NCBI GenBank assembly: GCA_963791045.1
Contig: CAWBQK010000013.1
Coordinates: forward strand, 160,001-224,000
Source of the DNA: Candidatus Latescibacterota bacterium
Lineage (GTDB): Bacteria > Krumholzibacteriota > Krumholzibacteriia > WVZY01
Reading direction: 5' to 3'
Length of the DNA stretch: 64,000 nucleotides
The notes beneath the pieces are model-generated. The model searched no databases. It was not told where the DNA came from and was given only the letters and a program-made list of their open reading frames with translations. Both the position numbers and the translations under genes were made by a program. Below are positions 17,766 through 36,410 of the stretch, in pieces (positions within the stretch are counted from its first letter, which is position 1; every line of letters begins with the position of its first letter).

Positions 17766-17914
17766 GCCGACCTCCTGTAACAGTTTCCTCAAGAACGACC
17801 TGGGAACGAGTATACCCGATGTCCAGCGATCCGTGCCCCAGAAAGATCGCGGGCTTTCTTCCGCGTACTTGACAACTTCTTGACCTGTGGTATGTTTTTT
17901 TTGATCGCTACTAA

Positions 17915-17998
17915 CAATGCGGGGTGCTCGCCGATGGGCGCGGGCTGAGAACATACCCTTTGAACCTGATCCGGGTAATGCCGGCGCAGGGACTCAGA
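17915..17998 (+). ncRNA. TPP riboswitch aptamer
   Basis: GGGGTGC...GCTGAGA..ATACCCTTTGAACCTGATCCGGGTAATGCCGGCGCAGGGA directly upstream of thi genes. Confidence 0.95.
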
Positions 17999-18009
17999 AG
18001 CTCTCGGCG

Positions 18010-25551: not shown

Positions 25552-28500
25552 ATGAAACGGATCGTGTTTGTTACGTTGTGTGCACTCGTTGTCCTCGGCG
25601 TGGTGGCGGGTGACACATGGTCAAAAACGACACAGGACGGCAAGCTGTCCGGATATCGTTTCAAAGAGCTTCCGCATGGGGGCGCCAATACACCCGCGTT
25701 TGCGCAGGGGTCTTTGTATCAAGCCGCCGCGGTTGGTTCCACCTTGCTCGGGTGGTGGCAGTTCGATACGGCGGCAGGGCAACCTGATGAGCAGGGGTGG
25801 ACCAAACACGATATCACCGGGCCACCGGATGTGAACTTTCATGTCGACGGATCGGTCGCCGGGGGCGCCGGGTGTTGTCCGATCGTGCCGGTGACCGGCG
25901 TAAAATCGATGTGGTGCGGCGCGTGTCCGAGTGCGGACGAAATCTACTGCGGGTACTCCTCACTGCCCGGCTACGGAAACAGCTGGTATCAATCATTGAT
26001 AACACAGACGCTCGCGTGTACCACGCTTTCACTCACCTATACCGCCGTATGGGATTCCGAGCCGGCCTACGATTTTACGTATGTTCAGTACTGGGATGGA
26101 ACGAGTGAAGCATGGGTTGACCTCCCCGTCGATGGAGGCGCAGGGAAATACGACGGCATCGGCGGCCCACTCGTCGAGAATTTCGTTATCAACCCGCCGG
26201 ACTATTCGACAGTCGTTCGGTTCTTTTTTGTGTCGGATGGGGCGTGGAGTGACGAGGACGGCTTGTGGCCGACAAACGAGGGTGCGTTCAAAGTCGACGA
26301 CATCACACTCGCCTGCACCGATCAGGGATCCGGTTTTTCCTACTCGGAAGACTGGGAGGATGAGGTTTGCGGTCAGAAGGGATCCAACGACGGCGTGTGG
26401 CACTCGGCGAGCACGCCGGGATTTGGGGTTTACGCGGCACTCCGTAACGGTGCGGGGGTTATCCAGGAAGACCCGTGCCGCCGGTTGATCTCAAATTTGT
26501 GGGGTTTCTTCGATGACCCCGTCGTCACCAACTATTCGTGCGGTGGCTGGCCGCTCCAGGGAGCGGTGCCCTACGGCCCCGATGCCAACGGGCTATATAT
26601 GAACAACGAGATATGGTCACCGAAAGTCGACTACGTCGGATCGGGTAACGAGGTGCGGTTTCGGTTCGCATCGTACAGAGATCTCTCCCTCGACGGGCTT
26701 GTGTTCTATGTCTGGCATGTCAGGTCGTGGGTGGCGGACTGCCCTCAGAACTGGGAGGACTACACGTTTGTCTACTACGGCGGGCAGAGAGACTGGTTGT
26801 ATACGACATTCGATATCGGTCCGTTGATTGATGCCGGAGCCACTCATCTTCAACTGGCTCTTGGCGCCGTCGACATGTGCGGTTATTGGTGTGGCATCTA
26901 CGGAACCGGCTCTTGCCACAGTCACGCCCCATTGTTCGACCAGGTTCGCCTCGTTCGTATTGACAACCAGGGACCACAGTGGAACGTGCGGCACATCGAC
27001 ATCTGGCAGGATAACTTCCCCGAGGAAGGTGGTGTCGATCCGGCGACGAGTTATGCGCGCTGCGACATGGCGCAGGATATTTTACCCAACAACAATCCCA
27101 TCCTCCCCGGTGACTCGCTTTCGGTCGGGGTCAACGACCCGGCTGGTTTCGCCGATGACAACACAGGCGGCCGCCCCGGCAAAGCGATCTATGCATTTGT
27201 AAGGGTCACCGATCGGTTTGGCAATGCGAAGGCGGGCAAGTCGGGCCTGGCCATCCAATCCCCCGACGACCAGGCCTACTCCGGCGACCCAAATGCGGGT
27301 CTCGTGAGATACCCATGGGTCGGCAATGTGCTGATCGGCGGAGAGACGTGGAGCCAATACCGGATGGACTACAATTATACATCCTCCGGCGGCCAGGTCA
27401 GCGGTCGTTACAACTGCGACCTGATGGATCTTGGCGCCGGCGCCACAGGCCCACACTACAATCACGCCAACGAGAACACCGCAGCGAACACGGGCGTGTT
27501 CACGCCTGGGGACGTCGTCAATTATTTCCTCGGCGCGCAGAATTCACTCGGTACGTGGAGCTACTGGCACCGCACACTCGACGGGCAGGGCGTCAGCCGC
27601 TCGACACTCAATATCACCGAGGCGGCGGCCGACCCATGCGAGTGGTCGGTTCTCCCCGACGCGGGTCTTCTTGCCGGTGACATTCTCTATGTGGATGATG
27701 CCGACGACCGTGGCGGACCCGCACAACTCTATTTCGACTGGGCGTTCAAGTACCTCAATATCGAAGACGGTGTTGACCGTTTTGATGTGTTGGGTCCTTC
27801 GTCGGCGGTCGGCAACAGTCTCGCATCGCGTGTGAAGGACTTGTCCACGCAGATGATCGGAGATCCCGGAGAGGTTTATCAGAAGGTGCTGTGGAACTCG
27901 AGTGATCTGAGCAGCGGCCTGATGGGGGACGGCGGCTATACGGCTGGCGGGGGCAGCTCTGAAAAATCAAACGACTACGCGTTGTGCGAATACTTCCTCA
28001 CCAACCACCCGGGGAATCCCGGCTGGTATGCGGCGGGCGATGACTTCCCGTCAGACTGGAATCAGTTGACGGGAGCGGCGGCGGTGAACGTCCGCAGCTT
28101 CTATATGAATTACAACCTCGTTGGTTACGATCACAAGTTAGTCGGCGAACCGGTGTCGCCGCTCGTCGTCCGGAGTGGTGACTATCCGATCGGGCCGGCG
28201 GCGATGTACGCATACGGTGGATGTCCGGTACTCAACGACTTCGATGTGATTCAAGCCATCGGCTCATCCAACTACGCGATGGAGTACTCCTCGCAGGGGA
28301 GTGGAAACGGAGCGGTGATTCGCCAGGCCACACCCAACGCGGCGGGTTCGACGGCGCGTTTCGTTCTGTCCGGGTTTGGTTACAACTTTATCCGCGATGA
28401 CGACGTGATCGGCATATGGCCGGACCGGGTGACGCACCTGCGGGACATACTCATCTATTTCCAGAATATCCTGGATGAGCCGATAGGGATCGACCCCGTC

Positions 28501-28788
28501 GCATATGCGAACAGTCTTGACAACGCATATCCGAATCCTTTCAACCCGACAACGACGATCAAGTACTCGATTGCCGAGCGCGGCCACGTGACACTCAAAG
28601 TGTACAATGCCGCGGGGCAACTCGTGCGAACACTTGTCGACGAGATGCAGTCGCCGGCCGCGACGGGGTTGTCGAAAACCTGGCACGGGATGAACGACCA
28701 TGGGCAACCCGTTTCGAGCGGTGTGTACTTCTACAGACTGTCAACCAATAGGTTTACACACACCAAAAAGATGGTGCTGTTGAAGTAA
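25552..28788 (+). CDS. Large secreted Cys/Trp-rich protein with C-terminal T9SS-type/FlgD-Ig sorting domain, paralog 1
   Basis: GGAGG then MKRIVFVTLC signal peptide; WDSEPAYD...FVSDGAWSDEDG (InhA/MAM-like beta-sandwich motif, inferred); CGYWCG..GSCHSHAP; YPNPFNPTTTI...VSSGVYFY...KKMVLLK. Confidence 0.85.
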   Translation: MKRIVFVTLCALVVLGVVAGDTWSKTTQDGKLSGYRFKELPHGGANTPAFAQGSLYQAAAVGSTLLGWWQFDTAAGQPDEQGWTKHDITGPPDVNFHVDGSVAGGAGCCPIVPVTGVKSMWCGACPSADEIYCGYSSLPGYGNSWYQSLITQTLACTTLSLTYTAVWDSEPAYDFTYVQYWDGTSEAWVDLPVDGGAGKYDGIGGPLVENFVINPPDYSTVVRFFFVSDGAWSDEDGLWPTNEGAFKVDDITLACTDQGSGFSYSEDWEDEVCGQKGSNDGVWHSASTPGFGVYAALRNGAGVIQEDPCRRLISNLWGFFDDPVVTNYSCGGWPLQGAVPYGPDANGLYMNNEIWSPKVDYVGSGNEVRFRFASYRDLSLDGLVFYVWHVRSWVADCPQNWEDYTFVYYGGQRDWLYTTFDIGPLIDAGATHLQLALGAVDMCGYWCGIYGTGSCHSHAPLFDQVRLVRIDNQGPQWNVRHIDIWQDNFPEEGGVDPATSYARCDMAQDILPNNNPILPGDSLSVGVNDPAGFADDNTGGRPGKAIYAFVRVTDRFGNAKAGKSGLAIQSPDDQAYSGDPNAGLVRYPWVGNVLIGGETWSQYRMDYNYTSSGGQVSGRYNCDLMDLGAGATGPHYNHANENTAANTGVFTPGDVVNYFLGAQNSLGTWSYWHRTLDGQGVSRSTLNITEAAADPCEWSVLPDAGLLAGDILYVDDADDRGGPAQLYFDWAFKYLNIEDGVDRFDVLGPSSAVGNSLASRVKDLSTQMIGDPGEVYQKVLWNSSDLSSGLMGDGGYTAGGGSSEKSNDYALCEYFLTNHPGNPGWYAAGDDFPSDWNQLTGAAAVNVRSFYMNYNLVGYDHKLVGEPVSPLVVRSGDYPIGPAAMYAYGGCPVLNDFDVIQAIGSSNYAMEYSSQGSGNGAVIRQATPNAAGSTARFVLSGFGYNFIRDDDVIGIWPDRVTHLRDILIYFQNILDEPIGIDPVAYANSLDNAYPNPFNPTTTIKYSIAERGHVTLKVYNAAGQLVRTLVDEMQSPAATGLSKTWHGMNDHGQPVSSGVYFYRLSTNRFTHTKKMVLLK

Positions 28789-28807
28789 CCTTCGTTTGCA
28801 TGACTCT

Positions 28808-28846
28808 AAAAGAAACCGGCGCCGACGCGTGCCGGTTTCTTTTTTT
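28808..28846 (+). terminator. Intrinsic terminator after paralog 1
   Basis: AGAAACCGGCGC...GTGCCGGTTTCT followed by a T-run. Confidence 0.85.
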
Positions 28847-28908
28847 GCATTGAGAAATACGATAACCGGGTATCGATATAAAGTGTAGTGGTTTTTCACG
28901 TTGCACTA

Positions 28909-28937
28909 TTGACGATCAGAAGCCACTTGCCTATATT
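28909..28937 (+). promoter_or_regulatory. sigma70 promoter of leader/paralog 2
   Basis: TTGACG-17-TATATT; both boxes are conserved at 32742-32770 while the spacer diverges. Confidence 0.8.
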
Positions 28938-28939
28938 GT

Positions 28940-29372
28940 AAGTGGCGAGTAATCCAAAACGGGCTTGGGGCTACACGCCGAAGATTCACTTTCCGGCCTG
29001 CCAGTGCATTCAGGAGAGGAGGTGGAATCTCATCGAGGCGCACTGGCTACTGTCTCCTGTTGTCTCATCACCCAGCTCGAGCCGACCAGGCATATCCCCC
29101 ATCAGGTCAGTCTAAATAGACGATGACGCAGGTGCGTTGCATCGTGTCGTCGAAGTGCGGGTAATTTTACCCTCGGAGGTCATCATCGTGTGCGCTGTTC
29201 CCTCAGCACGCGTTGAGGGTAATATGGCGGGGGCCATCTGCAACACATGCAACACGTGTCGCGGCGGACGCCGTTTTATTCCCGTACCGCTTAAGACTGA
29301 TACTTTTCCCTCCTTGTCGGTAGGCCACTTGTGGCTTACCGATTCTCACTTCTGCAACGATGGAGGAACGAC
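28940..29372 (+). ncRNA. Putative large structured 5' leader RNA, copy 1
   Basis: Collinear homolog at 32773-33206 with multiple compensatory base-pair changes; no convincing conserved ORF. Confidence 0.75.
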
Positions 29373-32300
29373 ATGAGGAAATCATTAGTGGTCGCGCTGT
29401 GCATCCTCATCGCCATGTCCAGTTTGGCCATGGCGAAGAAGATGCCGAACAAGCGGGCGGACATGAAGTTCAGGGAGTCAATCCCAATGCCGGCGAATCC
29501 GCCTGAAATTGGCGGTTCCTTGTTCCAGGCAGCCGCGGCAAATACCACGGTTCTCGGATGGTGGCAGTTTGATACGCCCACCGGCCAACCAGACGTACAG
29601 GGTTGGACGGTCGTCGACAAAACTTCCCAGGAAACCGAGTACTTTCACGTCGACGGCGGCATTGGGGGTGGTCCCAACTGTAGCGGGATCACACCAATCA
29701 ACGGATTGAAGTCGATGTGGTGCGGCCAGTACCCGACACTGGCAGCTCCCTGGTGCGGTTGGGGCACGCTGCCCGGCTACGGCAACAACTGGGATCAAAG
29801 TCTCGTTTCCGAGGTCATAAATTGTGACACGCTCACGTGGTCGTGGGTGGCCGTGTGGGATTCGGAGCCCGGCTTTGACTTCACGTACGCCGAATACTAC
29901 GACAACACCACGATGTCGTGGGTAGAATTGAACGTCAATGCCGGAGCGGGTTATTACGACGGATCCGGCGGACCGCTCGGCGAAACCTTCCAGGTACTCA
30001 CGACCGGCGGGTCCACGCAGCTTCGATTCCATCACGTTTCCGACGGCGGCTGGTCCGATGAAGACAGCGGCTGGCCGACAAACGAAGGCGCGTTCAAGGT
30101 CGATGACATTGGCGTAATGGCGACAGGTTTTTCGAACGGCCCCCAGACGTTCGAAACCGAGGCATGTTTGTCCAAAACCTCGGGCGACGGTTTCTGGTCG
30201 GCGCAAGCGGCACCCGACTTCGGAGCTTTTGGCGACCTGTACTCGGCGGCGGCGATTGTACAGGAAGACCCCTGTCTGCGCCCCTTGTCGAACATGTGGG
30301 GATTCTTCGACGATCCCCTGGTAACCAACTACGCGTGCGGCGGGTGGCCGCTTCAGGGCGCCATGCCCTACGGTCCCGATGATAGCGGGTTTTACATGTG
30401 GAACGAGATCTGGTCACCATGGGTGCCGAACACCGGCTCCGGCAGTGACTACCAGATTCAGTTCCTCACCTATCGGGATCTCCCTCTGGACAACCTTCAG
30501 TTCTACATCTGGGAAGTCCGAGGTAAAGGCGCCGACGGTTGTCCGACGCCCTGGGCTACCGATTTCTGGGTCTTCTACGGCGACCAGAAGGACTGGTTCC
30601 CGGAGCTGTTCCAGATCGGCGCGTTCATCCCGCCCGGATCGGTCGAACTCCAGATCGCGATCGGCGCGGTCGACCAGTGCGGCGCGTGGTGTGGCGTGTA
30701 CGGCTCTGGCGCCTGTCACAGTCACGCCCCGATACTCGACCAGATGTACTTCTACAAGGTCGACTTCGTGGGGCCGCAATGGGACGTTCGTGATATCGAC
30801 ACGTTCCAGGACAACTTCCCCGAGAATGGAGAGATTGTCGGGTATGCACGCTGCGACATGCCGCAGGATATATTGCCCGGCACCAACGGGTCGATCCTGC
30901 CAGGCGACTCGTTGCTCGTCCAGGTTGTCGATCCAAACGGAATCGGCACCGACCCGACCGTGGGTGGTCCATCGGTCTACCTGTTCGTAAATGTCACCGA
31001 CAGGCACGGAACTCCGATTGCCGGAAAAAGCGGTCTTGCGATCCAGTCACCGGACAACGTCAGGTACGTCGGCGACCCCAACGCGGGGACGCTGCGATAT
31101 CCGTTTGTCGGGCCCGCATCGGCACCGGCCGGCCTGCCCGCTGGATGGTCGCAGTACAGGATGGATGACGCGTACACCTCGGCAGGTGGCGCGCAGCCGG
31201 ACGCGTACTGCTGCGATCTCATGGATATCGCCAACGGTACTCACGTGAACGAGAACGCGGTGGCCAACGTCGGTGTCTTCGAGCCCGGAGATGTCATCAA
31301 CTACTTCCTCGGGGCGAAGAACTCGTTGGGCCAGTGGAGCTACTTCCACAGAACGTTCGGCGGTCAGGGCAGACAACACACAACGGCCGATATCAATGAG
31401 GCCGTGCAAGGCGCGATGGAGTGGTCTGTTCTCCCCGATGTTGGACGTGAGCCCGGTGACATTGGCGACATCCTCTTTGTGGATGACGCCGACGACCGCG
31501 GCGGGCCCGCTCAGCTTTACTTTGACTGGGCGTTCCAGTACATGGGAATTGAAGATCGCGTCGACCGTTACGATGTGATCGGACCATCCTCGGGCGTGGG
31601 CAACGGCCTCGCCTCGCGTGTTAAGAATGTGTTTACGCAGATCATCGGCGATCCGGTTGAGATCTATCAGAAGATTCTCTGGAACTCGAGCAATCTTTCG
31701 ACAGCTCTGATCGGGGACGGCGGCTCCGCCAACGGAGGAAGCGGATCCGAGAAAACGGATTCCTATAGTCTGCTCTTCACATTCTTGAATCACCACCCGG
31801 ACAACCCGGGCGTCTACACCGCCGGCGACGACATCGCCCAGGAGTGGGTTACGCTGACCGGCGCCGGCGCGGTAAACGTGAAGTCGACGTTCTTGACACA
31901 CTCATTGATAAGCGGCAACCACACGACGACGGGCGAACCGGTGTCACCTCTGACAACCCAGTCTGCGGGTTCGCCGATCGGCCCGGCATCGATGTACGCA
32001 TACGGTGGATGTCCGCTGATCAATGATTTCGATGTGCTCATGCCCACAGGCTCCGCCTTCTATGCGATGGAGTACGAGATTCCCGGGCACGGCGGTGTGA
32101 TCGCACAAGCAACGCCGAATGCCGCCGGAACGACCGCGCGGTATGTCATGTCCGGTTTCGCGTACAACTACATTCGCGATGACGGCATCGGTACCACGGC
32201 ACCCGACCGGGTCACGCACCTTCGCGATATCCTCGTCTGGTTCCAGAACATCATCGACGAGCCAATCGGCATCGATCCGGTGGCGTTCGAGAACCGGCTG

Positions 32301-32573
32301 GACAACGCGTACCCGAACCCGTTCAACCCGACCACGACGATCAAGTACTCGATCGCCGAACGGGCACACGTCACGTTGAATATCTACAACGCGGCGGGGC
32401 AGCTGGTACGCACGCTGGTGGATGAGGCACAGGCACCTAATCCCCAGGGATTCTCGATGGTCTGGAACGGTCTGAGCGACCAGGGGCAGCCGGTTTCAAG
32501 CGGTGTTTATTTCTACAAACTCACCGTATCAAATGGCTTCAGTATGACCAAGAAGATGGTCCTTCTGAAGTAA
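29373..32573 (+). CDS. Large secreted Cys/Trp-rich protein with sorting domain, paralog 2
   Basis: GGAGG then MRKSLVVALC..AMA signal peptide; same motifs as paralog 1. Confidence 0.88.
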   Translation: MRKSLVVALCILIAMSSLAMAKKMPNKRADMKFRESIPMPANPPEIGGSLFQAAAANTTVLGWWQFDTPTGQPDVQGWTVVDKTSQETEYFHVDGGIGGGPNCSGITPINGLKSMWCGQYPTLAAPWCGWGTLPGYGNNWDQSLVSEVINCDTLTWSWVAVWDSEPGFDFTYAEYYDNTTMSWVELNVNAGAGYYDGSGGPLGETFQVLTTGGSTQLRFHHVSDGGWSDEDSGWPTNEGAFKVDDIGVMATGFSNGPQTFETEACLSKTSGDGFWSAQAAPDFGAFGDLYSAAAIVQEDPCLRPLSNMWGFFDDPLVTNYACGGWPLQGAMPYGPDDSGFYMWNEIWSPWVPNTGSGSDYQIQFLTYRDLPLDNLQFYIWEVRGKGADGCPTPWATDFWVFYGDQKDWFPELFQIGAFIPPGSVELQIAIGAVDQCGAWCGVYGSGACHSHAPILDQMYFYKVDFVGPQWDVRDIDTFQDNFPENGEIVGYARCDMPQDILPGTNGSILPGDSLLVQVVDPNGIGTDPTVGGPSVYLFVNVTDRHGTPIAGKSGLAIQSPDNVRYVGDPNAGTLRYPFVGPASAPAGLPAGWSQYRMDDAYTSAGGAQPDAYCCDLMDIANGTHVNENAVANVGVFEPGDVINYFLGAKNSLGQWSYFHRTFGGQGRQHTTADINEAVQGAMEWSVLPDVGREPGDIGDILFVDDADDRGGPAQLYFDWAFQYMGIEDRVDRYDVIGPSSGVGNGLASRVKNVFTQIIGDPVEIYQKILWNSSNLSTALIGDGGSANGGSGSEKTDSYSLLFTFLNHHPDNPGVYTAGDDIAQEWVTLTGAGAVNVKSTFLTHSLISGNHTTTGEPVSPLTTQSAGSPIGPASMYAYGGCPLINDFDVLMPTGSAFYAMEYEIPGHGGVIAQATPNAAGTTARYVMSGFAYNYIRDDGIGTTAPDRVTHLRDILVWFQNIIDEPIGIDPVAFENRLDNAYPNPFNPTTTIKYSIAERAHVTLNIYNAAGQLVRTLVDEAQAPNPQGFSMVWNGLSDQGQPVSSGVYFYKLTVSNGFSMTKKMVLLK

Positions 32574-32600
32574 TGAATACGCGGAAACCATAGGCCCTTA

Positions 32601-32653
32601 CGGGTGCCGCTTTCTAATGGAGTTGAGCCACAAGAAAGCGGCACCCGTTTTTT
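32601..32653 (+). terminator. Intrinsic terminator after paralog 2
   Basis: CGGGTGCCGCTTTCT...AGAAAGCGGCACCCG-T6. Confidence 0.85.
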
Positions 32654-32741
32654 GTGTTTGCCGTCCCGACGGAGCAGCCCGACTCGTCAACTCACCAGTT
32701 TACAATACACATATAGGCGTCTGATTTTCGCTTCCGCGCTA

Positions 32742-32770
32742 TTGACGCTCAACGACCTCTCACCTATACT
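32742..32770 (+). promoter_or_regulatory. sigma70 promoter of leader/paralog 3
   Basis: TTGACG-17-TATACT. Confidence 0.8.
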
Positions 32771-32772
32771 GT

Positions 32773-33206
32773 GAGTGGTGAGTAGCCCAGTAAGGGCATG
32801 GGGCTACAGCCAAACGATTCACCATCCGTCTCGCCAGCGTCATTCGGGAAAGGAGGTGAAAACGAATCAAAGCACGCTGGCAACTTGCTCCTGATTTCTC
32901 ACCGGAAAGCTCTAGCCGACCAAACATATCCGCCAAAAGGTCAGTCTGAATGGACGATGACGCAGATGTAGTACATCGTGTCGTCGGAGTATGGCTAGTT
33001 CTACCCTCGGGGGTTATCATCGTGTGCTTCGTTCCCTCGGCACGCGTTGAGGGTGTTTCGCACCGGGGTGTCTGCAGAATTTGTAAGACGAGTCTCGGCA
33101 GGCGTCGTTCTATATTCATACGTTCAACGACTGACCTTATTCCCTCCTTCTCGGCAAGCCGCTTGTGGCTTGCCGATTCTCACTTCTGCAACGATGGAGG
33201 AACGAT
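32773..33206 (+). ncRNA. Putative large structured 5' leader RNA, copy 2
   Basis: Homolog of 28940-29372 with covarying stems. Confidence 0.75.
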
Positions 33207-36200
33207 ATGAGGAAAACACTTGTGGTTACGCTGTGCATTTTGGTCGCCATGTCCACCCTGACCATGGCGAAGAAAATGCCAAACAAACTCGACAACGCGA
33301 AGTTCCGGGAGGCGATTCTCTCTCCGGCGAATCCGCCTGAAATCGGCGGCTCGATGTTCCACGCCGCGGCCGCAGGTACCACGGTGCTTGGGTGGTGGCA
33401 ATTCGATTCATCTACCGGCCAACCGGACTCAGCGGGGTGGACGGTGGTGGACAAGTATGCCCAGGTGACCGAGTATTTTCACGTCGATGGCAACGCCGGG
33501 GGTGACCCAGCTTGTAACGGGATCACGCCCGTGAACGGTGCAAAGTCGATGTGGTGCGGCCAGTGGCAAACAACCGCCACCCCCTGGTGCAGTTGGGCCA
33601 CTCTTCCCGGCTACGGCAATAGCTGGGAACAACGCCTCGTTTCCGAGGTCATAGACTGCGACACGCTCACATGGGCGTGGACGGCCGTGTGGGACTCCGA
33701 ATCGGGTTATGACTACACGTACGCGGAGTACTACGACAATTTGACAATGTCGTGGTTGGCGCTTCCGATAAACGCCGGAGCAGAGGCTTATGACGGCGTG
33801 GGCGGACCGCTCTCCGAAGCCCATCAGGTCATCACGTCCGGCGGGTCGACACAGCTGCGGTTCCATTTCGTTTCCGACGAAGCCTATTCGGATCAAGACG
33901 GCGGATGGCCGTCCGTTGAAGGCGCGTTCAAGGTTGACGACATTGGCATCGTGGCGACAAACGGTTTCTCGAACGGACCCCAGACGTTCGAAACCGAAAC
34001 CTGTCAGTCCAAATCTTCCGGTGATGGATTCTGGACGGCCCAGTCCGCACCGGGTTATGGTCTCTACGGCGCGCTCCACTCCGCCACGGGGCTCGTCCAG
34101 GAAGACCCCTGCCTGCATCCGTTGTCGAACATGTGGGGGTTCTTCGACGACCCCCTGACAACCAACTATGCGTGCGGCGGGTGGCCGCTTCAGGGCGCCA
34201 TGCCCTACGGTCCCGACGCAAACGACCTTTATATGTGGAACGAGATCTGGTCGCCGTGGGTGCAGAACCAAGGCTCAGGCAGTGACTATCAGATCCAGTT
34301 CCTCTCCTACCGCGACCTCCCCCTGGACAATCTTCAGTTCTACCTCTGGGAAGTCCGCGGCAAGGACGTCAGTGGATGTCCATCGGAATGGGATACCGAC
34401 TGGTGGGTCTGGATGGGCGGCCAGAAGGACTGGATTCGAGGCGTATTCCAGATCGGCGCATTCGTTCCACCGGGATCGGTCGAACTCCAGGTCGCAATCG
34501 GCGCGATCGACATGTGCTATTTGTGGTGCGGCGTCTATGGCACCGGCGCATGCCACAGTCACGCTCCGATTCTCGATCAGATGTACTTTTACCGGGTTGA
34601 TTTCACGGGACCGCAGTGGGACGTTCGCGACATCGAACTCTTCCAGGACAACTTCCCCGAAAATGGCGAAGTTGTCGGATTTGCACGCTGTGACATGCCG
34701 CGGGATATGTTGCCCGGGGACAACGGGACGATCCTTCCCGGCGACTCGCTACTCATCCAGGTGATCGATCCGGATGGAATCGGCACGGATCCGACCGTGG
34801 GTGGCCCTTCGGTCTATCTTTTCGCGAAGGTGACCGACAGGCACGGGACTCCGATTGCCGGAAAGAGCGGTGTTGCGATCCAGTCTCCGGATAACATCCG
34901 GTTTACCGGCGATCCCAATGCGGGGACGCTACGGTATCCGTTTGTCGGACCTGCATCGGCGCCGGCCGGCCTTCCCGCCGGATGGTCGCAGTACCGGATG
35001 GACGACGCATATTCACGGATTGGCGGTCTGCAGCCGGACCAGTACTGCTGCGATCTCATGGACATCGCCAACGGCAACTATGTGAACGAGAACGCGCCGG
35101 CCAACGTCGGGATCTTTACACCGGGGGATGTCATCAACTACTTCCTCGGCGCCAAGAACTCGCTGGGCCAGTGGAGTTACTTCCACAGAACGTATGGCGG
35201 TCAAGGCGCGGCAAACACAACGGCCGATATCAATGAGGCCGTGCAAGGCGCGATGGAGTGGTCGGTACTTCCCGACGCGGGCCGCGAGCCCGGCGATCTC
35301 GGCGACATTCTGTTCGTGGATGATGCCGACGACCGCGGCGGACCGGCCCAGCTCTACTTCGACTGGGCGTTCCGGTACATGGGAATTGAAGATCGCGTCG
35401 ATCGTTTTGATGTCATTGGTCCATCCTCGTCGGTCGGCAACGGCCTGGCGTCGAGGGTAAAAAACGTGTTCGCGCAGATCATCGGCGATCCGGTCGAGAT
35501 CTATCAAAAGATTCTCTGGAACTCGAGCGATCTCAGATCGGGTTTGATCGGAGATGGTGGTACAGCAAACGGCGGGAGCGGGCCCGAGAAAACAGACTCT
35601 TACGACTTGCTCTTCACGTTTCTGAACCACCACCCGGACAACCCGGGCGTCTACGTGGCCGGCGATAATATCGCTGAGGAATGGGCCGGTCTTATCGGCG
35701 CAGGCGCGGTCAATCTCAAGTCGACATTCATGACGCACGCATTGACAAATGGTAGTCATACGGCGGCCGGTGAGCCGGTGTCGCCTCTGACGACCCAGTC
35801 GATCGGCTCCCCGATCGGCCCGGCGTCGATGTATGCGTACGGTGGATGTCCGGTGATCAATGATTTCGATGTGCTCATGCCGACAGGCTCTGCCTTCTAT
35901 GCGATGGAGTACGAGATTCCCGGGCACGGCGGTGTAATCGCGCAGGCGACGCCAAATGCCGCCGAGACGACCGCACGCTATGTCATGTCCGGATTCGCGT
36001 ACAACTACATTCGCGACGACGGGCTCGGCGCTACGATGCCCGACCGTGTCGCGCATTTGAGAGACATCCTCATCTGGTTCCAGAACATCATCGACGATCC
36101 GATCGGCATCGATCCGGTGGCGTTCGAGAACCGGCTGGACAATGCGTACCCGAACCCGTTCAACCCGACGACGACGATCAAGTACTCGATCGCCGAACGG

Positions 36201-36410
36201 GCGCACGTCACGTTGAAGGTTTACAACGCGGCGGGGCAGCTGGTACATACGCTTGTGGATGAAGCACAGGCTCCCAGCGCCGAAGGATTCTCCAAGGGTT
36301 GGAACGGTCTGAACGACAAAGGGCAATCGGTTTCAAGCGGTGTGTATTTCTACAAACTCACCGTATCAAATGGCTTCAGTATGACCAAAAAAATGGTCCT
36401 TCTGAAGTAA
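33207..36410 (+). CDS. Large secreted Cys/Trp-rich protein with sorting domain, paralog 3
   Basis: Closely collinear with paralog 2 at protein and DNA level, extending into the 3' UTR (TAATGAATACGCGGAAACCA). Confidence 0.88.
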   Translation: MRKTLVVTLCILVAMSTLTMAKKMPNKLDNAKFREAILSPANPPEIGGSMFHAAAAGTTVLGWWQFDSSTGQPDSAGWTVVDKYAQVTEYFHVDGNAGGDPACNGITPVNGAKSMWCGQWQTTATPWCSWATLPGYGNSWEQRLVSEVIDCDTLTWAWTAVWDSESGYDYTYAEYYDNLTMSWLALPINAGAEAYDGVGGPLSEAHQVITSGGSTQLRFHFVSDEAYSDQDGGWPSVEGAFKVDDIGIVATNGFSNGPQTFETETCQSKSSGDGFWTAQSAPGYGLYGALHSATGLVQEDPCLHPLSNMWGFFDDPLTTNYACGGWPLQGAMPYGPDANDLYMWNEIWSPWVQNQGSGSDYQIQFLSYRDLPLDNLQFYLWEVRGKDVSGCPSEWDTDWWVWMGGQKDWIRGVFQIGAFVPPGSVELQVAIGAIDMCYLWCGVYGTGACHSHAPILDQMYFYRVDFTGPQWDVRDIELFQDNFPENGEVVGFARCDMPRDMLPGDNGTILPGDSLLIQVIDPDGIGTDPTVGGPSVYLFAKVTDRHGTPIAGKSGVAIQSPDNIRFTGDPNAGTLRYPFVGPASAPAGLPAGWSQYRMDDAYSRIGGLQPDQYCCDLMDIANGNYVNENAPANVGIFTPGDVINYFLGAKNSLGQWSYFHRTYGGQGAANTTADINEAVQGAMEWSVLPDAGREPGDLGDILFVDDADDRGGPAQLYFDWAFRYMGIEDRVDRFDVIGPSSSVGNGLASRVKNVFAQIIGDPVEIYQKILWNSSDLRSGLIGDGGTANGGSGPEKTDSYDLLFTFLNHHPDNPGVYVAGDNIAEEWAGLIGAGAVNLKSTFMTHALTNGSHTAAGEPVSPLTTQSIGSPIGPASMYAYGGCPVINDFDVLMPTGSAFYAMEYEIPGHGGVIAQATPNAAETTARYVMSGFAYNYIRDDGLGATMPDRVAHLRDILIWFQNIIDDPIGIDPVAFENRLDNAYPNPFNPTTTIKYSIAERAHVTLKVYNAAGQLVHTLVDEAQAPSAEGFSKGWNGLNDKGQSVSSGVYFYKLTVSNGFSMTKKMVLLK

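Follow-up and report, generated by a model that had tools for sequence, protein, structure and literature searches.

Long leaders with a far-upstream Shine-Dalgarno-like site and a predicted masked ribosome-binding site precede genes for type IX-sorted proteins in Krumholzibacteriia

Introduction

In a few described bacterial mRNAs, a ribosome-binding site (RBS) that is closed by structure is served by a ribosome-binding region at some distance upstream, or a Shine-Dalgarno (SD)-like sequence lies in the 5' untranslated region (UTR) far from any start codon. Here we analyze a candidate arrangement of this kind in a 64,000-nucleotide stretch of a Candidatus Latescibacterota genome (contig 13, positions 160001-224000, hereafter the window; the genome assembly is 3.66 Mb and 81% complete). 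In the window, a non-coding 5' leader of ~430 nucleotides (nt) precedes each of two tandem paralogous genes for large secreted proteins with type IX secretion system (T9SS) sorting tails.

The standby region of tisB mRNA is an unstructured stretch read via protein S1, not an extended SD. The STAB-SD of cry3Aa, reportedly described by Agaisse and Lereclus in 1996, works in Firmicutes against 5'-to-3' decay of the RNase J1 type, from a place near the processed 5' end. Published accounts place the standby site of Escherichia coli tisB ~100 nt upstream of the sequestered RBS (PMC7708055), call a 5' pseudoknot also essential (PMC7708055; PMC5934652), count the MS2 coat gene as another standby case, and present the STAB-SD of Bacillus thuringiensis cry3Aa as an SD-like sequence in a long 5' UTR, remote from the start codon and followed by none, with proposed roles in 30S binding and mRNA stabilisation (PMC12970973).

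The leaders reported here resemble tisB and the standby model due to de Smit and van Duin in combining an RBS predicted to be sequestered with a distant upstream site that may bind ribosomes, possibly together with a pseudoknot, and the RBS is predicted to lie in a stable structure, as that model has it. They differ from tisB in the distance (~100-150 nt in canonical leaders of the family and ~350 nt in the window, against ~100 nt) and in the upstream site itself, which is an extended SD that can pair with an internal strand resembling the 16S rRNA tail. Like STAB-SD, the upstream site is SD-like, complementary to the 16S 3' end, located in a 5' UTR and far from any start codon; unlike there, the true RBS is predicted to be masked as well, and the 81%-complete genome gives neither an RNase J match that reaches the family cut-off nor any RNase Y match. 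RNA thermometers (ROSE, fourU) and translational riboswitches also close an SD with an anti-SD in cis, the opening of which would switch translation on. The present leaders, however, have no Rfam match or known aptamer, are far longer and carry an extra strong SD upstream. A masked RBS with a distant SD-like site is a known kind of system; the layout seen here, which adds internal strands resembling the 16S tail, is a new one.

Results

The upstream extended SD is the best predicted 16S partner in the leader

The original prediction described in both leaders an SD, AGGAGGTG, with no ATG behind it (a "decoy"), then an anti-SD, a CUUG-capped hairpin and the real SD GGAGGAA before the ATG. Read directly from the sequence, all of these motifs are present in both copies (Table 1). 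ATG, GTG and TTG are absent within 14 nt behind AGGAGGTG in either copy, and the CUUG hairpin carries compensatory changes.

The 3' tail of the genome's own 16S rRNA is GGAUCACCUCCUUUCU. The upstream site is an exact complement to it over 8 bases in copy 1 and over 11 in copy 2, and the match runs past the SD core into GUGA(U), as the tail predicts. The 16S tail of E. coli has the core of this complementarity too. The predicted binding to the tail is -21.1 kcal/mol in copy 1 and -21.9 kcal/mol in copy 2, against -9.7 kcal/mol for the true SD, a weak one with 5 base pairs (bp) to the tail. Dinucleotide shuffles (mean -12.9, sd 2.2) reached the observed binding in 0 of 200 trials for copy 1 and 1 of 200 for copy 2. 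Across the leader family, the upstream site exceeds the true SD in 16S binding in 43 of 43 leaders (median difference -8.7), a comparison of the best of many windows with a single one, in which the shuffle control covers the window copies. By these computations, nothing else in the leader comes close to the upstream site as a 16S partner.

We considered 29 homologous loci chosen by the conserved 3' block before the start codon alone, independently of the upstream motif. Eighteen of them hold 8-10 exact complements to the 16S tail, 86-140 nt before the 3' block and in the same relative place; 8 or more such bases arose in 1.7% of mononucleotide shuffles. The genome-wide rarity of 8- to 10-mers was dropped as an argument, as such words are common inside genes: 9-nt complements to the tail occur at 152 sites in the genome, 104 of them with no start codon and open frame behind.

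Elsewhere in the same genome, on the reverse strand of contig C15 (near reverse-strand offsets 218205 and 218296), two strong SD-like sites stand 265 nt and 174 nt ahead of the ATG for a 420-amino-acid protein that has a signal peptide and a C-terminus (...ATYRY) resembling that of an outer-membrane protein. Envelope genes of this organism may more generally have SDs placed far upstream. Another paralog (C11:178238, locus L042, 1059-1068) has a leader of ~290 nt with CGAGGAGGTGATG 146 nt upstream of the start; this leader keeps GCAACGATGGAGGAA, and AAGGAAA replaces the pyrimidine anti-SD run.

The upstream SD lies in two supported pairings

The upstream SD had been placed in a hairpin loop. 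Its closure by GCCAGTG/CACTGGC stands and is backed by a compensatory change, U-A in copy 1 against C-G in copy 2 (GCCAGCG/CGCTGGC). The SD bases in the loop can also pair with TTCACTTTCC at 28985-94, as in the RNAalifold structure, so that the hairpin loop is one of two supported pairings. Taken together, the stem at 29000-29047 and the helix with 28985-94 could form a pseudoknot of H-type topology.

The window helix 28985-94 : 29018-27 has a counterpart in the canonical leaders. In family f2, the upstream element pairs with an upstream strand, CUUCAUCUCYC, which resembles the 16S tail; 82.5% of the cells of this helix are paired in alignment A7, and one of its pairs occurs as UG 12 times, UA 7 times and CG 3 times. 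Taken over all of the structure tested, covariation scores 0.101, above all 500 shuffles but below a version slid by -1 (0.105), and statistical support for it is therefore moderate. The SD-like loop, CUUCAUCUCYC and UUCACNUUCCUUC are candidate pseudoknotted strands in the canonical leaders.

A second, local pseudoknot between CAGGAGA and UCUCCUG (29011-17 with 29053-59) had also been put forward. It exists in copy 1 and is absent in copy 2, and in a natural variant of the leader the changes at 29015, 29016, 29058 and 29059 break 3 of its 7 pairs; we reject it.

The true SD is predicted to be masked

In folds of the full leader, the true SD of copy 1 is unpaired with a probability of 0.19 and that of copy 2 with 0.01; in local folds the value is 0.00 for each. 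Freeing the SD is predicted to cost 5.0 to 6.3 kcal/mol. In canonical leaders, the SD is unpaired at no more than 0.05 in 24 of 25, with partners at -24 to -34, a count that leaves out two further leaders whose degenerate upstream site was missed by the motif pattern. The value is at most 0.10 in 5 of 7 type B leaders. Among the four of type C, three are masked by distant partners only and one is open at 0.8. Further leaders give 0.00 (genome G010), 0.17 (G012), 0.28 (another paralog of the same genome) and 0.08 (locus L007). The SD and its predicted partner shift together between leader types, as GGGGG/UUCCUUC, GGGAG/CUCCC and GGAGG/CCUCC. These folds suggest that the true SD is sequestered by the anti-SD pyrimidine strand.

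The leaders are constrained, non-coding and folded

Similarity between the two leader copies begins at the promoter. From 28940 to the ATG, they are identical in 329 of 437 columns with a single indel, compared with 279 of 441 fourfold-degenerate sites of the two genes (z ~3.9, by arithmetic on the counts), and the 3' end (29329-29375) is identical at 45 of 47 positions. The differences are spread evenly over codon positions (20/21/20 in 29116-29373 and 13/16/16 in 28940-29115), so no reading frame appears to be under selection. Two open frames on the forward strand, 29137-29376 and 32950-33210, end in ATGA over the gene start and resemble translational coupling. A coding upstream open reading frame or leader-peptide attenuator was considered and rejected: start codons are not conserved, there is no codon-position bias, and neither strand has a frame that looks coding.

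Applied to both copies together, RNAalifold gives 107 pairs, 11 of which are changed on both sides and still paired, in a structure derived from the same two sequences whose pair changes were counted. The changes include U-A to C-G plus two one-sided changes in the CUUG hairpin, and C-G in copy 1 to U-A in copy 2 in the hairpin at 29119-29151 (columns 197/201). Single-sequence folds of the two copies share the main hairpins, with modest z-scores of -1.5 and -2.3. The leader is more than a duplicated spacer; it is constrained, non-coding and folded.

A third natural sequence, from a relative in RNA libraries, is ~93% identical, with 27 leader differences and one insertion. Its changes 29321 T>C and 29338 A>G keep a CUUG-hairpin pair by the same change as in copy 2, 29285 T>C turns G.U into G-C where copy 2 has A-U, and 29042 A>G makes a U.G pair in the stem GCCAGUG:CACUGGC; 29351 T>A hits the middle of CACUUCU. 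Contigs from three RNA libraries of one study carry this relative's leader from ~28957-28968 continuously into the coding sequence, which hints only weakly that the mRNA includes the leader. No contig in the four runs covers 28800-28947, which is compatible with a transcription start near the promoter and proves nothing.

Related leaders recur across an order

The protein family of the window genes has matches in every related genome searched (41 of 41), and each holds many paralogs. Many of the upstream regions of these genes share short words with the window leader at matching offsets, namely AGGAGGTG(A), AGCCGACC, TCCTTCTC and, at -19/-20, GCAACGATGG, which at least 9 other genomes have in leaders at that place. 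The canonical leader (type A) is 290-350 nt long and has a fixed order of elements (Table 1). A model, R1, was built of its central module (GCCGACC-ACCGUUGG..ACCCGAC..CCGACGGU) followed by the SD-like hairpin; since RNAalifold found no consensus pairs for alignment A6, R1 scores sequence only.

Within the order (Candidatus Krumholzibacteriia), R1 finds the module in 33 of 36 genomes, at 43 places, 1 or 2 per genome. By family, with the window genome not counted, these are 11 of 12 in f1 and 21 of 23 in f2. In a 151-genome sample of the phylum, the module occurs in 9 of 9 f1 and 16 of 17 f2 genomes, weakly in 5 of 33 of f5 and 3 of 60 of f3, and in none of the 31 genomes from the four remaining families. 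The leader family always lies 5' of this T9SS-tail gene family. The exact 3' block is present at 29 places among the GTDB species genomes. The original prediction held that motifs not conserved in homologous leaders would speak against it; the elements turn out to be conserved across an order.

The single canonical copy of the window genome is at C10:71540-71888 on the reverse strand (locus L051, E = 3.5e-39). The gene behind it aligns in several frames and its ATG frame stops after 15 codons, as a frameshift, a pseudogene or an assembly error would produce. At L007 (G005:C12), ~90-30 nt upstream of the ATG, the 3' block is immediately preceded by a ~30-nt inverted copy of itself; block and copy would fold into a long hairpin that takes in the anti-SD region. 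L034 (G012, minus strand) has four tandem GCCGACC repeats, 12-20 nt apart, ~190-130 nt upstream of the ATG, compared with one or two in other leaders.

The window copies share with the canonical leaders the gene family, the 5' anchor GGGC..GGGGCUA, AGCCGACCA, the upstream extended SD, the 3' block and the predicted masking of the SD. The anchor, as GGGC(N3)GGG(Y)U near the 5' end, is at -412 and -413 in the window copies; GCAACGAUGG stands at -19/-20 next to the SD in both groups; and GCAACGAT, CAACGATG and AACGATGG have the same offset in the window leaders and in L010, L021, L022, L028 and L030-L032. The window copies are without the central module, have the order of upstream SD and GCCGACC reversed, and carry CACUUCU for the pyrimidine run UUCCUUCUC of the canonical 3' block. 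They additionally hold an extra anti-SD, the CUUG hairpin and a private central domain of ~200 nt (~29105-29300), which was found in the two copies and their close variant only.

Profile searches do not link the two groups. On the window copies, R1 gives only short matches with E above 0.9 (SD-like at 29015-29029 and 32849-32863, and GCCGACC at 32913-24), and an nhmmer search with the canonical profile recovers C10:71540-71888 of this genome and not the window copies. The window leader gave no blastn match in 40 relatives, and an nhmmer profile of its two copies returned only self matches among 50 loci. Scans of metagenome contigs yielded nothing with the protein and, with a 20-mer of the 3' block, two matches, both in unrelated sequence. 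The relatives of the window type found are one close variant from the RNA libraries and two distant forms in G010 and G012, where leaders of intermediate form precede the closest orthologs (62% and 71% protein identity). Because profile methods fail to link the groups and intermediates exist in G010 and G012, we treat the window leaders as a divergent subtype. By their shared sequence elements, the window leaders are divergent members of an undescribed, clade-wide leader family; homology of their middle part to the canonical leaders is unproven.

No such leader is described in the literature searched on the precedents, the phylum and T9SS, a search that was not exhaustive. Rfam 15 at the gathering threshold finds, in the whole window, nothing except a thiamine pyrophosphate (TPP) riboswitch at 17910-18009 (+; RF00059, 63.1 bits, above the gathering score). 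In the region 28000-34000 with E up to 1 nothing falls inside the leaders, and 11 homologous loci gave 0 matches with E up to 0.1. A sub-threshold Thr_leader match at 28730-28845 (+; 40 bits against a gathering score of 55) was set aside as the end of the upstream gene with its terminator hairpin.

Genomic setting and features of the window leaders

The two genes are the second and third of four tandem T9SS-tail paralogs (25552-28788, 29373-32573, 33207-36410 and 36456 onward), and only these two have the long leader, which has no further copy of the window type in the genome. The first paralog, just upstream, has a short leader without the three elements. The fourth aligns in several pieces with an internal TGA and may be broken or mis-assembled. 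The proteins of genes 1 and 2 are identical at 874 of 1066 residues (82%), and their sole Pfam matches are the C-terminal sorting region (FlgD_ig, Por_Secre_tail, CHU_C). At 29261-29274 (+), the copy 1 leader contains a 5-bp hairpin with UUUUAUU behind it that resembles a terminator; attenuation through it was set aside, as the U run is lost in copy 2.

Table 1. Features of the two leaders and their genes in the window, with the element order of the canonical leaders
Feature	Position	Strand	Remark
Intrinsic terminator of upstream paralog	28808..28843	+	15-pair stem, then T run; a separate transcription unit starts after it
Promoter, copy 1 (TTGACG-17-TATATT)	28909..28937	+	10/12 consensus matches
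Promoter, copy 2 (TTGACG-17-TATACT)	32742..32770	+	10/12 consensus matches
5' anchor GGGCTTGGGGCTAC	28961..28974	+	common to canonical leaders (GGGGCAAAGGGTT)
Upstream pyrimidine strand TTCACTTTCC	28985..28994	+	resembles 16S tail; pairs with upstream SD (RNAalifold columns 46-55 with 80-88)
Stem GCCAGTG (29000-06) / CACTGGC (29041-47)	29000..29047	+	encloses upstream SD
Upstream extended SD AGGAGGTG, copy 1	29017..29024	+	start codon absent behind
Upstream extended SD, copy 2	32851..32858	+	AAAGGAGGTGA, 11 exact complements to 16S tail
AGCCGACCA	29080..29088	+	motif invariant across the canonical leader family
Hairpin GACGATGACGCAGGTGC-GTT-GCATCGTGTCGTC	29119..29151	+	opens the central domain
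Anti-SD CCCTCCTT, copy 1	29308..29315	+	CCTCCTT at 29309-29315; CCUCC pairs with true SD (columns 371-375 with 424-428)
Anti-SD CCCTCCTT, copy 2	33142..33149	+	CCTCCTT at 33143-33149; pairs with SD in minimum-energy fold
CUUG-capped 10-bp hairpin CGGTAGGCCA-CTTG-TGGCTTACCG, copy 1	29318..29341	+	between anti-SD and SD
CUUG-capped hairpin, copy 2	33152..33175	+	
3' block ATTCTCACTTCTGCAACGATGGAGGAACGAC, copy 1	29342..29372	+	second pyrimidine strand CACTTCT 29347-53; true SD GGAGGAA 29362-68
3' block, copy 2	33176..33206	+	true SD 33196-33202
Gene 1	29373..32573	+	ATG at 29373; 1066-amino-acid secreted protein, signal peptide, T9SS C-terminal sorting domain
Gene 2	33207..36410	+	ATG at 33207; 1067-amino-acid paralog of gene 1, signal peptide
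Canonical leader, 5' part			GGACUAGGGGCAAAGGGUU, covarying hairpin, GCCGACC-ACCGUUGG..ACCCGAC..CCGACGGU
Canonical leader, middle			CUGAAACG[..GAAGGAGGUGAA..]CGUUUCAG, then UUGCCUCU, second covarying hairpin
Canonical leader, 3' part			UAAAU, then UGGKUUUCGCGUAUUCACNUUCCUUCUCAGCAACGAUGGGGGAAUACG(U)AUG

Discussion

We tentatively favor, at somewhat less than an even chance, the reading that the masked RBS is served by an upstream docking site for 30S subunits, through standby, protection or both. The ~430-nt structured leader would then control translation initiation of the gene for a large T9SS-sorted protein. The upstream SD would dock 30S subunits, and a docked subunit would stand by and take the masked RBS once the short helix between anti-SD and SD opens; protection of the long leader against decay that depends on the 5' end may be a further effect. 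How available the upstream SD is would be set by the helix or H-type pseudoknot (with 29000-06:29041-47) that holds it, and an envelope protein would as a result be made in a gated way and potentially at a high level. The original prediction had mentioned a standby site as the alternative to mutually exclusive folds; with predicted 16S binding far above that of the true SD, this alternative appears to fit best, and better than the exclusive folds.

Several observations weigh against 30S docking. The upstream SD lies ~350 nt from the start codon, beyond known standby sites, and its predicted unpaired probability is only 0.47 in copy 1 and 0.20 in copy 2 (canonical f1 leaders, 0.33-0.94 in 10 of 11 rows and 0.04 in L071; f2, 0.02-0.28). 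All accessibilities come from predictions of nested structures, in which pseudoknots are given no energies. The anti-SD:SD helix is unvarying within a leader type (6 of 7 pairs invariant), and within-type covariation is therefore uninformative. The RNA evidence consists of contigs of a relative from one study, in libraries that possibly hold DNA. RNase J scores 24 bits against a cut-off of 400 and RNase Y has no match in the 81%-complete genome, so a STAB-SD mechanism of the Bacillus type is not directly transferable; RNase E/G is present (493 bits). Eleven of the 29 canonical loci lack a site of at least 8 nt; one of these is the inverted copy of the 3' block inside another leader, and the rest carry degenerate forms (GGGAGAUGA, GAGAGAUGA, GGUGGUGA and CGAGACGA). 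Changes in the upstream motif are matched in the internal strand (GGGAG/CUCCC in L056, GAGAG/CUCUC in L059 and UUCUC in L058), which suggests selection on an intramolecular helix and not on 16S binding.

This co-variation of degenerate motifs with an internal partner is what one would expect if the upstream "SD" were mainly a structural strand of a folded sensor domain, in a riboswitch-like or protein-binding leader where a ligand, protein or small RNA opens or closes the RBS and SD likeness comes from pairing with pyrimidine-rich partners. In the 27 canonical leaders, GCCGACC, ACCCGAC, UAAAU and CAGCAACGAU are invariant and apparently single-stranded between covarying helices, and the 3' block is nearly invariant across two families. 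Each genome has 1 or 2 canonical leaders despite its many paralogs, which suggests specific control of particular genes. The window copies, however, are without the canonical central module, so that a shared sensor is not evident, and the 16S-tail match beyond the SD core is left unexplained. Nor is there an Rfam match or a candidate ligand or protein; CsrA, a possible reader of GGA motifs, was rejected because no CsrA gene was found in the 81%-complete genome. We consider a sensor domain of this kind rather unlikely. The original prediction's main idea was a three-element switch. In the form considered here, translation would be off while the anti-SD is bound to the true SD and on when it pairs with the upstream SD instead, with some signal selecting the fold. 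The complementarity that the prediction described holds, as CCUCCUU can pair with GAGGAGG in copy 1 (one G.U) and AAGGAGG in copy 2 (A-U), and so does the predicted masking of the true SD. CACUUCU (29347-53) could likewise pair with GGAGGUG (29018-24) over 7 to 8 bp, canonical GAAGGAGGUGAA is complementary to UUCAC-N-UUCCUUC over 12 bp with a bulge (intact in 8 of 10 f1 sequences), L058 has a G-to-A change in the upstream SD together with a C-to-U change in the block, and the order of elements would let the upstream SD pair with the anti-SD before the true SD is transcribed. Pairing with the upstream SD, however, lacks support from covariation or energy. Relative to the minimum-energy fold, the decoy:anti-SD state is less stable by 11.5 kcal/mol in copy 1 and by 5.0 in copy 2 and the decoy:block state by 16.4 and 10.3, which argues against mutually exclusive folds; blocking the decoy moves SD accessibility by no more than 0.02 in 28 of 29 rows (L071, 0.14 to 0.02); and the only variable canonical pair (n=27) shows 1 compensatory change, 1 wobble and ~10 mismatches. 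The natural variant 29351 T>A disrupts CACUUCU in its middle, leader types C and E retain the upstream SD with no adjacent anti-SD block, and no sensing element or signal was identified. Such a switch is unlikely.

It is highly improbable that the leaders have no present function and reflect a recent tandem duplication with chance motifs in purine and pyrimidine runs. The genes are indeed recent paralogs, only two such leaders exist in the genome, and 8- to 10-mers complementary to the 16S tail stand at many other places in it. Against this, leader identity exceeds that of fourfold-degenerate sites, several hairpins carry compensatory changes, the motifs recur at matching positions in other genera and families, and the shuffle controls oppose chance. 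A more speculative extension of 30S docking is that the leader senses ribosomes, with the supply of free 30S subunits, or modification or occlusion of the 16S tail, setting translation and mRNA lifetime across the order. As the leader holds both an almost perfect complement of the 16S tail and internal look-alikes of it, free 30S would compete with the leader strands; we regard ribosome sensing as a long shot.

If 30S subunits do dock upstream, the family would add a large, clade-wide structured leader to the few cases of working far-upstream SD-like sequences, standby sites and STAB-SD, and would do so from a candidate phylum without a cultured model. Its combination of a super-SD, internal 16S-tail look-alikes and a weak masked SD makes a compact test of how 30S subunits gain access to structured starts, and the conservation of 16S tails means that parts of the leader can be moved into reporter constructs. 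For the organisms themselves, the leader marks which one or two of the dozens of T9SS cargo paralogs in each genome are specially controlled. Ribosome sensing, if true, would affect a major T9SS-exported surface protein across an order of Krumholzibacteriia.

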